Source: a virus (lineage: Duplodnaviria > Heunggongvirae > Uroviricota > Caudoviricetes). Taken from it: DNA of 18,069 bases. The stretch lies in IMG/VR virus record IMGVR_UViG_2675903352_000005. One strand, 5' to 3'. The translations under genes and the position numbers were made by a program. The first letter of the stretch is position 1; every line of letters begins with the position of its first letter. This document shows positions 1,309 to 4,939 of this stretch, piece after piece. The notes beneath the pieces are model-generated. The model did no database searches and was not told where the DNA came from. It saw only the letters and a program-made list of their open reading frames with translations.

Positions 1309-1506
1309 ATGCTAAAACAGCAGGATATGACCGAAACTGCCAGAGTGGTGTTTAATGAATTAAGCGTCACCGAACCGGCGACCGTCGGGGAAATTGCGCA
1401 GAATACTTACCTTTCACGCGAACGTTGCCAGTTAATACTGACCCAGCTTGTTATGGCGGGTGTGGCTGATTATCAGTTCGGTTGTTACAGACGCCTTCCT
1501 CAGTGA
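1309..1506 (+). CDS. Small hypothetical protein (65 aa), possible winged-helix DNA-binding protein (FaeA/PapI-like pattern)
   Basis: ORF preceded by AAAGGGAAAAGG. The segment TVGEIAQNTYLSRERCQLILTQLVMAGV resembles the recognition-helix region of small FaeA/PapI-type regulators as I recall them. Short length makes this a tentative call. Confidence 0.4.
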   Translation: MLKQQDMTETARVVFNELSVTEPATVGEIAQNTYLSRERCQLILTQLVMAGVADYQFGCYRRLPQ

Positions 1507-1656
1507 AGACTTTTTAATTTGTGGTAATGGGCGGCTGGTGGGTGTTAGCGGCACCTGCCAGCCATTTGCTCATGCGTTGGGGTCACAAGCAAACCTCAGG
1601 CCCATCTGCTTTGCGCAAAAGCAGTATGAGCCTATCAGAGAAGCGCTTATTGATCT

Positions 1657-2709
1657 ATGGCTAATACTGTAAAAATATCCAGTTGTGAGTTAGTCAACGC
1701 TGATTGCCTGGAATTTATCCAGACCTTACCGGAAAACTCTGTCGATCTGATAGTCACAGACCCGCCATACTTTAAAGTGAAGCCCGAGAGCTGGGATAAC
1801 CAGTGGAAGGGGGACGATGATTACCTGAAATGGCTGGACCAGTGTCTGGCGCAGTTCTGGCGGGTACTGAAGCCCGCCGGAAGTCTTTACCTGTTCTGTG
1901 GTCATCGCCTGGCATCTGACACCGAAATTATGATGCGTGAACGCTTTAATGTGCTGAATCACATTATCTGGGCGAAGCCGTCAGGACGCTGGAACAGGTG
2001 CAACAAGGAAAGCCTGCGGGCGTATTTCCCGGCAACAGAGCGCATTCTGTTTGCCGAACATTATCAGGGGCCATATCGCGGCAAAAGTGACGGCTATGCG
2101 GCAAAAGAAAGTCAACTCAAACAGCACATAATGGCACCGCTGATTTCGTATTTCAGGGATGCTCGTGCCGAACTGGGTATAACGGCAAAACAAATTGCCG
2201 AAGCCACAGGTAAGAAAAATATGGTTTCCCACTAGTTTGGTGCCAGTCAGTGGCAGTTGCCGAATGAGGCTGACTATCGGAAGTTACAGGCACTGTTTTC
2301 CCGTATAGCGGCAGAGAAGTTTCAGGAACAACAACTGGAACAACCACACCACCAGCTGGTGGCATCTTATGATTCACTGAATCGCAAATATTCTGAATTG
2401 CTGGATGAGTTTAAATCTCTCCGGCGCTATTTCTCCGTATCAGTCTCCGTGCCTTATACCGATGTCTGGACGCATAAGCCCGTTCAGTTCTACCCGGGTA
2501 AACATCCGTGCGAGAAACCGGCGGATATGCTCCGGCAAATAATCAATGCCAGTAGTCGACCTGGTAATCTGGTCGCTGATTTCTTTATGGGATCCGGTTC
2601 CACAATAAAAGCAGCAATGGCGCTGGGGCGTCGGGCGTTAGGTGTTGAACTTGAGTCAGAGCGGTTTAATCAGACGGTGAAAGAGGTAAGTGAACTGGTG
2701 GGGAAATAA
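1657..2709 (+). pseudogene. DNA amino-methyltransferase (N6-adenine or N4-cytosine), split by an in-frame TAG at 2233-2235
   Basis: Two ORFs in the same frame (1657-2235 and 2257-2709) are separated only by one amber codon. The N-terminal part carries the catalytic motif DPPY (VTDPPYF); the C-terminal part carries the AdoMet-binding motif FxGxG (FFMGSGST). Both are needed in one polypeptide, so the intact gene would encode about 350 aa. Confidence 0.75.
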
Positions 2710-2716
2710 TTCTGGT

Positions 2717-2742
2717 GGCCACGTTGCGTGGCCTTTTTATTT
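2717..2742 (+). terminator. Rho-independent terminator-like hairpin between the methyltransferase and the holin
   Basis: Perfect 7-bp stem GGCCACG-(ttg)-CGTGGCC at 2717-2733, followed by TTTTTATTT. Confidence 0.5.
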
Positions 2743-2785
2743 CCAACACAGCACCCGCAAATATCGCGAGGTGAGAGATGACGAA

Positions 2786-3121
2786 ATGCCTCATAACCCA
2801 AATACCTGGCCGGACTGGCTGGAGTTGTTTCAGAGCTGGTGGCGTGGAGACACACCGCTGGGTGCAGTGATTATGTCGATCGTTATGGCTGGTTTGCGCA
2901 TCGCCTATTTTGGCGGTGGTGGTGGCTGGAAGCGAAAAACGCTCGAGATTTTGCTCTGTGGCGCTCTGACGCTGACCTTTGCATCCGCTCTTGAGTATGT
3001 CGGATGGCCTAAATCACTTTCTGTTGCCATTGGTGGCGGCGTGGGGCTGATCGGTGTCGATGCTATTCGTGGGGCTGCAATGCGAGTAATTGGTAACAAG
3101 TTTGGTGGCTCTAAGGAGTAA
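2786..3121 (+). CDS. Holin, three predicted transmembrane segments (111 aa)
   Basis: ATG 2786 follows GAGGTGAGAG. Three hydrophobic stretches (LGAVIMSIVMAGLRIAY, LEILLCGALTLTFASALEYVGW, LSVAIGGGVGLIGVDAI) and a charged C-terminus; it sits directly upstream of the endolysin. The longer track ORF from GTG 2690 would run through the terminator hairpin, so I reject that start. Confidence 0.8.
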   Translation: MPHNPNTWPDWLELFQSWWRGDTPLGAVIMSIVMAGLRIAYFGGGGGWKRKTLEILLCGALTLTFASALEYVGWPKSLSVAIGGGVGLIGVDAIRGAAMRVIGNKFGGSKE

Positions 3122-4076: not shown

Positions 4077-4388
4077 ATGAAAATTTATATTGCCGGACCA
4101 ATGACGGGATATGAGAATTTTAATCGTGACGCCTTTAATAAAGAGGCTGAGCGTTTGTCACGTCATGGTCATTCGGTCCTGAATCCAGCCACTTTACCCA
4201 ATGGCCTGACGCAATGTGAATACATGGATATTTGCTTTGCAATGCTTCGTTCTGCTGATGCTATTTTGATGCTTCCTGGCTGGAAAGCGTCAGCTGGAGC
4301 AACTGCTGAGTATTATTACGCATACAAGATGGAGATGCCGGTATTCACTACGCTGAATTACCCGCCAGCTTGTTCCTCTGTAGCATAA
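4077..4388 (+). CDS. Hypothetical protein (103 aa), nucleoside 2-deoxyribosyltransferase-like (DUF4406-type) N-terminus
   Basis: N-terminus MKIYIAGPMTG and the overall pattern resemble the small nucleoside 2-deoxyribosyltransferase-like family. Located just after the lysis cassette, where lambda carries bor. Family assignment is from memory only. Confidence 0.5.
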   Translation: MKIYIAGPMTGYENFNRDAFNKEAERLSRHGHSVLNPATLPNGLTQCEYMDICFAMLRSADAILMLPGWKASAGATAEYYYAYKMEMPVFTTLNYPPACSSVA

Positions 4389-4489: not shown

Positions 4490-4939
4490 ATGCAAGAAGA
4501 AGCAAAGAAAATTCTTGTTGATTTATTGAAGAAGGCCAGCGATGGAATTGATTCCGCCATTGCATTCAGTCAGGCTCAGATTCCGGATGTTGTTCATCAG
4601 TTGCTGATATGGAATATGGTTAATAGCCTGATTAAAACATTAATAGCGATTTCAACAATCCCGCTGGTTTTCTGGTTTATGAAGAAACAGTACCAAAAAG
4701 TTGAAATTGGTAAGTTCGATGATGAAGGATGGTCATGGGATAAGGGAAAGCCTAAATACAAACCTACTCTGATTTGGGAAAGTAACGGTGAGATTAGTTT
4801 TCTTATCTTACCATTAGCAGCAGTTTTTGTTATGTGGGTAAGTTTTATTATTGCTGTAGTAACCAATATGACATGGTTAAAAATCTGGCTGGCACCTAAG
4901 TTATATCTAATCGAATACGCAGCATCACTAATTAAATAG
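4490..4939 (+). CDS. Hypothetical membrane protein (149 aa), AT-rich cargo gene
   Basis: AGGA sits 9 nt upstream of the ATG. Hydrophobic segments (LLIWNMVNSLIKTLIAISTIPLVFWFM, ISFLILPLAAVFVMWVSFIIAVVT, WLKIWLAPKLYLI). Base composition is clearly more AT-rich than the flanking phage genes. Followed by a hairpin. Confidence 0.55.
   Translation: MQEEAKKILVDLLKKASDGIDSAIAFSQAQIPDVVHQLLIWNMVNSLIKTLIAISTIPLVFWFMKKQYQKVEIGKFDDEGWSWDKGKPKYKPTLIWESNGEISFLILPLAAVFVMWVSFIIAVVTNMTWLKIWLAPKLYLIEYAASLIK

Follow-up and report, generated by a model that had tools for sequence, protein, structure and literature searches.

A small open reading frame (ORF) lying immediately upstream of a phage DNA methyltransferase gene raises the question of whether the two genes work together and, if so, by what means. 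The pair considered here is located within an 18,069-nucleotide (nt) stretch of viral DNA (IMG/VR record IMGVR_UViG_2675903352_000005), which is referred to below as the window. The original prediction placed a 65-amino acid (aa) ORF at 1309-1506, a 150-nt spacer at 1507-1656 with a GATC at 1652-1655, and the ATG of the methyltransferase at 1657, all of which are borne out. It also proposed that the small protein resembles the FaeA/PapI regulators, which act together with adenine methylation to set the state of fimbrial operons, and that the GATC and the two genes form a coupled regulator-methyltransferase module.

A cassette within the phage late operon

The window represents the late region of a lambdoid prophage, and many E. 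coli prophages are 92-96% identical to it. Its gene order is RusA (46-411), the Q antiterminator, a pR'-like promoter, a tR'-like terminator, the 65-aa ORF, the spacer, the methyltransferase, a terminator, and the holin/lysozyme/Rz genes; from Q onward, each feature described here lies on the + strand. Q (402-1097; Pfam Phage_antiter_Q, E 3e-81) defines the late operon. Just after it, as in lambdoid phages, a consensus scan finds a putative late promoter (1081-1109) of the sequence TTGCAA-17-TATATT, and this is followed by an intrinsic terminator (~1161-1186) that folds as a GC stem with a 7-U run. The equivalent site in phage SfV carries a terminator annotation. Nucleotide similarity to phages with different Q genes starts at this tR'-like terminator (query position ~65), which marks the 5' boundary of a mobile cassette. 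The cassette is closed by a second intrinsic terminator, identified by terminator scan at 2717-2743 just 5' of the holin and lysis genes, whose equivalent after the methylase is annotated in SfV, N15, and phiKO2. SfV has the same gene order with both terminators annotated (orf47/orf48), and this order is also found in phiP27, 1720a-02, and many Stx2 phages. Positions 1161-2743 are thus a conserved late-operon cassette set between tR', a terminator under Q control, and the lysis genes; it belongs to a phage late operon that depends on Q and not to a fimbrial switch. By consensus scan, no σ70 promoter is present between tR' and the 65-aa ORF or within the spacer.

The methyltransferase

The gene at 1657-2709 encodes a β-class N6-adenine methyltransferase, with matches to Pfam N6_N4_Mtase on both halves and the motifs TDPPYF and FFMGSGST (DPPY at the N-terminus and FxGxG at the C-terminus). 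Judged by its sequence, it is an orthologue of M.EcoGII, and homology suggests that such an enzyme would be non-specific; when a missing Trp is restored, identity to M.EcoGII is 82% over 349 aa, using an M.EcoGII sequence from the supplement of PMC11551740 that is machine-read text and may hold a few errors. Like M.EcoGI and M.EcoGII of E. coli O104:H4, it belongs to a prophage-borne, β-class DPPY/FxGxG family that is silent in lysogens. Unlike M.EcoGII, the window copy is inactivated by an amber codon: an in-frame TAG (2233-2235) replaces a Trp (W193 in the motif SHWFG) that is invariant in all 11 aligned homologues, and because of this the copy is a pseudogene. The cassette in the window is therefore a decaying one whose methylase is dead. 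The original prediction had passed over this TAG.

M.EcoGII accepts adenine in any context as a methylation target, in RNA as well as in DNA, and is fully active alone, both in vitro and in vivo. It is unexpressed in the lysogen, and its constitutive expression results in slow and unstable cell growth (PMC5778455). Homologues in prophages of O111 STEC are likewise silent (PMC6602927). Neither the upstream small gene nor a leader RNA is mentioned in PMC5778455 or in a review of the β-class enzymes (PMC7544214), both of which describe the enzyme only.

A small winged-helix protein

The small ORF starts with an ATG, has the Shine-Dalgarno (SD)-like sequence AAGGGA 7 nt 5' of it, and encodes 65 aa before its stop, with TVGEIAQNTYLSRERCQLILTQLVMAGV at aa 25-52. 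Its product belongs to phrog_331 (function unknown; E 2.4e-37, residues 1-64 on profile positions 35-98). AlphaFold2 predicts, with a pLDDT of 90.2, a stand-alone winged helix composed of three helices (H1, H2, and H3) and a β-hairpin wing. The winged-helix fold had been anticipated in the original prediction. It is generic and not diagnostic of FaeA/PapI, and a Foldseek comparison with viral structures returned generic winged-helix matches only.

Conservation indicates that the protein is real. A third-helix sequence, RCQLILTQL-MAGL, is invariant in 37 loci of different species, with 4-6 codons used per Leu or Thr. Since these invariant residues are encoded by up to six synonymous codons, selection must be acting on the protein; an overlapping nucleotide signal behind the conservation is ruled out by synonymous sites that vary freely. 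H1, H2, and the wing, in turn, diverge to 41% identity across loci. Among 5.8 billion proteins there are 332 homologues, from Escherichia, Shigella, Salmonella, Klebsiella, Citrobacter, and Buttiauxella, which share the start MLKQQDMTE; longer gene calls add only unconserved N-terminal extensions. The family is narrow, because an exhaustive profile search yields only 85 clusters at 50% identity. Together, these findings indicate that the small ORF is a true gene and that its product is a winged-helix protein.

The proposed resemblance to FaeA/PapI (PF04703) finds no support at the level of sequence families. Searching the protein against Pfam with hmmscan at E<=1 gave TrmB, DUF7342, DprA_WH, and HTH_24, all below threshold, and no FaeA, and searching the family profile against PDB chains at E<=10 gave no PapI chain. 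Other assignments fare no better. RefSeq names the protein either 'hypothetical protein' or 'TrmB family transcriptional regulator'; the latter label, which is corrected here, rests on a sub-threshold score (PF01978, 16.8 bits vs a cut-off of 25.6, E 0.006), and no NCBIfam model matches. The signature of a Z-alpha domain, an Asn/Tyr in helix 3 together with Pro-Pro-x-Trp in the wing, is absent. PADLOC gives a single weak match to a defence-system component, and no known anti-defence protein matches. The protein also has neither a Cys4 motif nor a Pfam match to Zn_ribbon_Com (PF10122), the family of Mu Com.

The spacer is a structured RNA leader

The spacer does not have the character of a promoter-type switch region. 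It is instead a conserved RNA structure of ~130 nt, whose closing helix, P2, pairs the 12 nt directly 5' of the methylase AUG. The first helix, P1 (1527-1573), consists of P1a (AUGGGC at 1527-1532 with GCUCAU at 1568-1573) and P1b (1533-1546 with 1550-1563), which are separated by an internal loop, CAUU, at 1564-1567. P2 (within 1580-1656) is formed by GGGUCACAAGC at 1580-1590 with GCUUAUUGAUCU at 1645-1656, and it encloses the hairpin P3/P4 (1595-1612 with 1618-1640). The predicted minimum free energy (MFE) of the window leader is -61.3 kcal/mol (z = -3.8), and none of 200 shuffled sequences is as stable.

Multiple comparisons support this structure. The spacer is more conserved than the small ORF and contains compensatory substitutions, and single-sequence folds of distant species agree on the helices. 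A MAFFT alignment of 38 sequences was made independently of any structure; 87.8% of its cells are paired compared with <=45% when the partner strand is slid, and it contains 46 double-change cells vs an expected 15.7, a number reached in 0 of 500 shuffles. A larger alignment (A6) of 66 distinct sequences leans towards the structure, because it was fitted to a covariance model; in it, compensatory changes occur at 36 of the 40 pairs, including all 12 pairs of P1b, with 375 double-change cells vs 98±10 and 85.6% of cells paired vs <=41% when slid. G-U pairs favour the + strand as the strand of the leader RNA. Rfam 15 has no match to 1507-1656 at E<=1 in a 1.1-kb scan, and a 191-nt scan returned only two chance-level matches on the minus strand (E>4).

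The 3' strand of P2 ends 1 nt before the methylase AUG. Across 119 loci the spacing between P2 and this start codon is constant, and the 12 nt before the AUG have a low predicted probability of being unpaired. No canonical SD is present within 5-9 nt of the AUG; the sole purine-rich stretch (GAG or AAGG) lies 13-19 nt 5' of it, in the loop that precedes the P2 3' strand.

The GATC proposed as a methylation switch site falls within this same P2 strand. About 0.6 occurrences of GATC are expected by chance in 150 nt, and this one is non-random, because it is kept in 36 of 38 related (lambdoid-type) leaders as part of the RNA helix. Its partner strand co-varies between GGUCA and GAUCA, and the GATC is absent from N15-type leaders. 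The RNA helix thus accounts for the site.

The leader may also adopt a second state. A candidate alternative hairpin, P-alt (1565-1593), would pair UUUGCUCAUG at 1565-1574 with CACAAGCAAA at 1584-1593; neither P1a nor the 5' strand of P2 can pair as usual when this hairpin forms, so that the start region would be freed. From 67 to 76% of the P-alt cells are paired vs ~34% in slid controls. One P-alt pair is C-G, U-A, or A-U depending on the enterobacterial lineage, and several others change on both sides. A fold constrained to contain P-alt lies ~4 kcal/mol above the MFE. Since RNAalifold returned no consensus for the isolated P-alt segment, the evidence consists of these explicit pair counts, and we consider P-alt a moderately supported alternative state of the leader.

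The gene, the leader, and the methylase are inherited together

The co-occurrence of the gene pair across prophages was examined in three samples. A count in E. coli used 601 nt that run from tR' through the ORF and the spacer into the start of the methylase, at >=80% coverage; by this measure, at least 1,873 of 5,426 complete genomes contain the pair with the small protein of the window (allele I). A second form, allele II (mEp460 gp52), shares the N-terminus and helix 3 of allele I but differs from it in H1, H2, and the wing, and is present with its methylase in 1,147 further E. coli genomes. In a species-level sample anchored on the small protein, with one genome per species (34 loci, 33 of them informative), the methylase starts 134-153 nt after the stop of the small ORF in 32 of 33 loci, ranging from Escherichia via Proteus and Providencia to Plesiomonas. 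Finally, among IMG/VR loci anchored on the SfV-type methylase, which are near-identical and so speak to co-occurrence and not to covariation, the small ORF accompanies the methylase in 78 of the 79 that were informative, as allele II in 57 and as allele I in 21. The few exceptions to the pairing are deletion derivatives (phiSTEC1575-Stx2k, PhiR5_1, and L025). H1, H2, and the wing are swapped between alleles I and II on near-identical methylases.

The winged-helix gene, the leader, and the methylase are thus inherited together. Because the pair co-occurs far beyond chance, the coupled small-protein/methyltransferase module that had been proposed is real, while the PapI/Dam-type methylation coupling proposed with it is unsupported.

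Relatives and the upstream element

A covariance model of the leader extends the family. It locates the leader 5' of M.EcoGII-family genes in N15, PY54, and phiKO2, in Serratia OS31, Vibrio VHML and Val-yong3, and Aeromonas phiARM81ld, and in about 147 of 203 further IMG/VR loci. These loci have four architectures. In the first, the lambdoid arrangement seen in the window, 0-15 nt separate the end of the winged-helix ORF from the modelled leader. In the second, exemplified by N15 gp51 and phiKO2 gp51 (annotated winged helix), a distant winged-helix gene lies 115-173 nt upstream, and a predicted late promoter and a terminator intervene before the leader; the winged-helix genes that precede the methylase in N15, PY54, and phiKO2 are related to the one in the window (hhalign E 6e-5). 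In the third (18 loci), there is no winged-helix gene, and the AUG at the 3' end of the leader belongs instead to a zinc-ribbon ORF of 38-90 aa, which adjoins the methylase or overlaps it. The version in phiARM81ld passes Pfam Zn_ribbon_Com (27.9 bits vs a cut-off of 22.9), and such Com-family/zinc-ribbon ORFs are found only in the Aeromonas and Vibrio relatives of the cassette. In the fourth (~30 loci), neither small gene is detected and, for example, the leader directly follows Q; Serratia OS31 likewise has the leader and methylase and no detectable winged-helix gene.

Some Vibrio-type methylases have an ordinary SD and no detectable leader. Upstream of these, on the far side of a terminator, is an ORF of 63-90 aa with similarity to the winged-helix protein (hhalign E 7e-4, 33% identity including FEQLTMFGYLSKLTNGCYVR), probably a distant relative of it. 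The winged-helix protein must be dispensable for the core mechanism, because the leader and the methylase occur without its gene in ~30 loci. Therefore, the core of the cassette is the leader plus the methylase; the winged-helix gene is often present as an accessory and is almost never found away from a methylase.

The winged-helix gene is itself preceded by a conserved non-coding element (1248-1284) of the form CTTGCTG, N13-14, CA(A/G)AGTTAT..GT(A/G)TG. The consensus is CTTGCTG-N13/14-CAGAGTTAYNTGTRTG, the window carries the E. coli variant CAAGAGTTATTGGTATGTCA, and the element is nearly invariant from Escherichia to Proteus and Plesiomonas. By pattern search, each of 64 loci has a single copy, which invariably lies 30-60 nt 5' of a winged-helix ORF adjacent to it; no copy was found elsewhere or where the adjacent ORF is missing. 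A consensus scan does not class the element as a σ70 promoter. Possible roles for the element are those of operator, atypical promoter, or 5'-UTR signal, and among DNA sites it is the leading candidate target of the winged-helix protein.

A model for control of the methylase

How might these parts function together? The reading that we favour, which we consider evenly balanced between right and wrong, is a three-part expression-control cassette in which translation of an M.EcoGII-type hypermethylase is gated and the winged-helix protein is a dedicated regulator. An enzyme of this type hypermethylates phage DNA against restriction, and its mistimed production harms the cell. The leader would keep translation of the methylase off by default, as does the translation-inhibition structure of Mu mom, and would open by switching to P-alt. 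The winged-helix protein would set the timing or the amount of methylase by binding either the leader RNA or the conserved DNA/RNA element 5' of its own gene; it would thus do the work of Mu Com with a fold unrelated to that of Com. The role of this protein within the cassette is one that we infer, and its mode of action may be RNA binding, DNA binding at 1248-1284, modulation of the methylase at the protein level, or anti-defence.

Several observations weigh against this model. The net charge of the small protein varies from about -4 to +4 between alleles and its helix 3 is largely hydrophobic, features that are atypical of a nucleic-acid binder. No obvious RNA site co-varies with the winged-helix protein, because the sequence of P1b varies freely in some loci that have the gene. 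In addition, P-alt is moderately supported and not called by RNAalifold, the leader and methylase lack a detectable winged-helix gene in the ~30 loci of the fourth architecture, and some Vibrio-type relatives manage with a normal SD. Finally, the winged-helix gene lies 5' of the leader and the Com-like genes lie 3' of it; being on opposite sides, they are not simple positional replacements for each other.

A bolder version of this model, which we think unlikely, is that the leader represents a new class of two-state riboregulator for temperate-phage m6A hypermethylases and that the winged-helix protein is an RNA-binding re-invention of Com, opening the start-codon helix only under sustained Q-antiterminated transcription. 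More speculative still is the idea that the methylase, which also methylates RNA, might feed back on its own A-rich leader.

Alternative explanations

Two other explanations, each rather doubtful, survive about equally well. One is that the winged-helix protein acts on the methylase itself, as an antitoxin-like restraint or a targeting factor, or that it is an anti-defence protein directed against m6A-dependent restriction (Mrr or DpnI-like). The one-way dependence noted above, in which the winged-helix gene is almost never without the methylase and the methylase does occur without the gene, would be expected of such a partner. Hypervariable, allele-swapped H1, H2, and wing regions are typical of arms-race surfaces, some alleles are acidic, and a small upstream gene followed by a toxic downstream gene resembles the order of toxin-antitoxin pairs. 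However, a protein of 63-67 aa such as this one contains no extra enzyme-binding domain, and its invariant part is helix 3, usually the helix that reads nucleic acid. M.EcoGII is fully active alone (PMC5778455), and the single weak PADLOC match with no known anti-defence match also argues against this idea.

The other explanation, held with similar reserve, is that the winged-helix protein binds DNA at 1248-1284 and simply autoregulates a moron-type transcription unit, and that the leader works independently of it by responding to SAM/SAH, to temperature, or to the folding kinetics set by the Q-modified polymerase. The element does travel strictly with an adjacent winged-helix ORF, the terminators bracket the cassette as they do morons, and the leader exists without the winged-helix gene; a ligand pocket could be built from invariant leader nucleotides, for example AAAUGGGCG and GAGCCUAUCA. 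On the other side, the element is not a recognisable σ70 promoter, and M.EcoGI and M.EcoGII are silent in lysogens. Moreover, no known riboswitch class matches the leader, and its conserved positions are mostly in helices and not in junctions.

Much less credible is the mechanism of the original prediction, in which a PapI/FaeA-type co-regulator and adenine methylation at GATC 1652-1655 would switch the methylase gene heritably on or off. Like PapI, the small protein is a winged helix, both being stand-alone proteins of ~65-77 aa tied to adenine methylation, and the GATC adjoining the start codon is kept in 36 of 38 lambdoid-type sequences. Nonetheless, the sequence-family match to FaeA or PapI is missing. 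The PapI/FaeA systems operate in the control region of a fimbrial operon with two GATCs in Lrp sites, whereas here a single GATC, with no Lrp-flanked pair, lies within the P2 helix and is missing from N15-type leaders. The gene is located 3' of pR'/tR', between Q and the lysis genes of a lytic late operon, and the partner methylase is a non-specific, phage-encoded enzyme of the M.EcoGII type, not Dam. A PapI/FaeA-type Dam-dependent epigenetic switch is therefore not supported.

It is equally improbable that the spacer is conserved as a DNA-level site or as a leader peptide translated from the nearly invariant AUGGGC at 1527: that frame has 45 codons in the window, with a stop (1662-1664) overlapping the methylase start, but it is rejected because neither its length nor its phase is conserved (3-66 codons with scattered stops and all three phases relative to the methylase AUG across 65 leaders), and the compensatory changes and G-U pairs point to RNA pairing.

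Relationship to known systems

For the expression-control model, the closest precedent is Mu com-mom, which by analogy is nearer than PapI/Dam. Mom is a host-toxic, anti-restriction DNA modification enzyme, and Com, made from the same late transcript, binds a hairpin beside the translation-inhibition structure that holds the mom start codon, thereby turning on mom translation (PMC6483171). Both systems comprise late phage genes for an anti-restriction, host-harming DNA-adenine modification, with a small regulator gene co-transcribed just upstream and the start codon of the modification gene at or in an RNA helix. The analogy is strengthened because true Com-family genes occur in some versions of the cassette, where relatives of the window methylase carry a Com-family zinc-ribbon gene. 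There are also clear differences. The small protein here is a winged helix and Com is a zinc finger, with no homology between them, and binding of RNA by the winged-helix protein is putative. The winged-helix gene lies 5' of a larger leader (four helices, ~130 nt), whereas com overlaps its target gene. The enzyme is an M.EcoGII-type methyltransferase and not Mom, and no Dam/OxyR-controlled promoter is evident in the cassette.

The C proteins of restriction-modification systems and the Aca proteins of anti-CRISPR loci offer a second comparison. These are also small (winged) helix-turn-helix proteins that are co-transcribed with a harmful gene of a mobile element and that time or damp its expression. 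Some Aca proteins bind RNA as well. They differ in having defined operators at their own promoters, while 1248-1284 is only a candidate operator.

The leader RNA is a well-supported addition to the candidate cis-regulatory RNAs of phages. Together with its candidate alternative fold, this conserved RNA, which occludes a start codon, provides testable parts for how a phage silences and then deploys a harmful enzyme; of M.EcoGI and M.EcoGII in lysogens, the papers cited above note only that they are "not expressed". M.EcoGII-type enzymes are widespread, and M.EcoGII is much used for non-specific m6A labelling. The small accessory proteins found in the cassette are of two unrelated kinds, a winged helix or a Com-like zinc ribbon. 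At least one in three complete E. coli genomes carries the cassette, as does Nissle 1917, and in many Stx2 phages it lies on the late transcript between Q and stx.

The winged-helix gene and its upstream element

Upstream of the winged-helix ORF, the window contains a conserved element (1248-1284) of the form CTTGCTG-N13/14-CA(A/G)AGTTAT..GTRTG. An element of this type is present as one copy per locus in 64 loci, always 30-60 nt 5' of the adjacent winged-helix ORF; the element is not a canonical σ70 promoter. The ORF itself occurs as two alleles, represented by L004 (2283-2486) and by the window (1309-1506). The N-terminus and helix 3 of the predicted fold are common to both, while H1, H2, and the wing are wholly different. 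Near-identical methylases accompany both alleles, and thus the sequence comparison indicates mosaic exchange within this 200-nt gene.

The methyltransferase gene and its start

The methyltransferase gene of the window is split into ORFs of 192 and 150 aa by an in-frame amber codon (2233-2235), which occupies the Trp site of the SHWFG motif, a position that is invariantly Trp in all of the aligned homologues. An internal stop is also present in the Providencia copy of the gene (L031). Because both copies are interrupted, these toxic methyltransferase genes seem to decay frequently in prophages.

In phage N15 (L124, NC_001901), the methyltransferase is encoded by gene 52, whose annotated start is at locus position 1735, as opposed to an ATG at position 1501. 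Two lines of evidence, family homology and the leader RNA's 3' end, point to the ATG at 1501; judged from these sequence features, the annotated start appears to be displaced downstream by about 234 nt. A zinc-ribbon ORF, Com-like or of another kind, begins at the leader-terminal AUG in relatives from Aeromonas and Vibrio and, on its 3' side, abuts or overlaps the methylase gene. Such ORFs are located at the leader end in L123 (1362-1577), L127 (1062-1178), and 16 further IMG/VR loci.

Genes and transcripts around the cassette

The surroundings of the cassette (winged-helix ORF, leader, and methylase gene) are a cargo hotspot. In some E. coli, a PemK/MazF toxin gene (L002, 3191-3592) is inserted between the terminator-like site tR' and the winged-helix ORF; in other E. 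coli, tRNA genes and stx2 are found 3' of the methylase. The cargo observations come from this segment of L002, from sequence downstream of the methylase in L001 and L003, and from L005.

In the window, the ORF called in the holin region (2690-3121) overlaps both the methylase end and the methylase terminator; the ORF therefore probably begins 3' of the called start. Two small ORFs follow Rz, one resembling a nucleoside deoxyribosyltransferase (4077-4388) and the other membrane protein-like (4490-4939).

The short transcript from the late promoter-like site pR' to tR' (1083-1188) could be an StxS-like RNA that the late promoter yields as a by-product. Its Rfam matches, the Salmonella prophage sRNAs isrK and isrJ and the trp and leu leaders, are all weak and sub-threshold (E 0.1-0.7).
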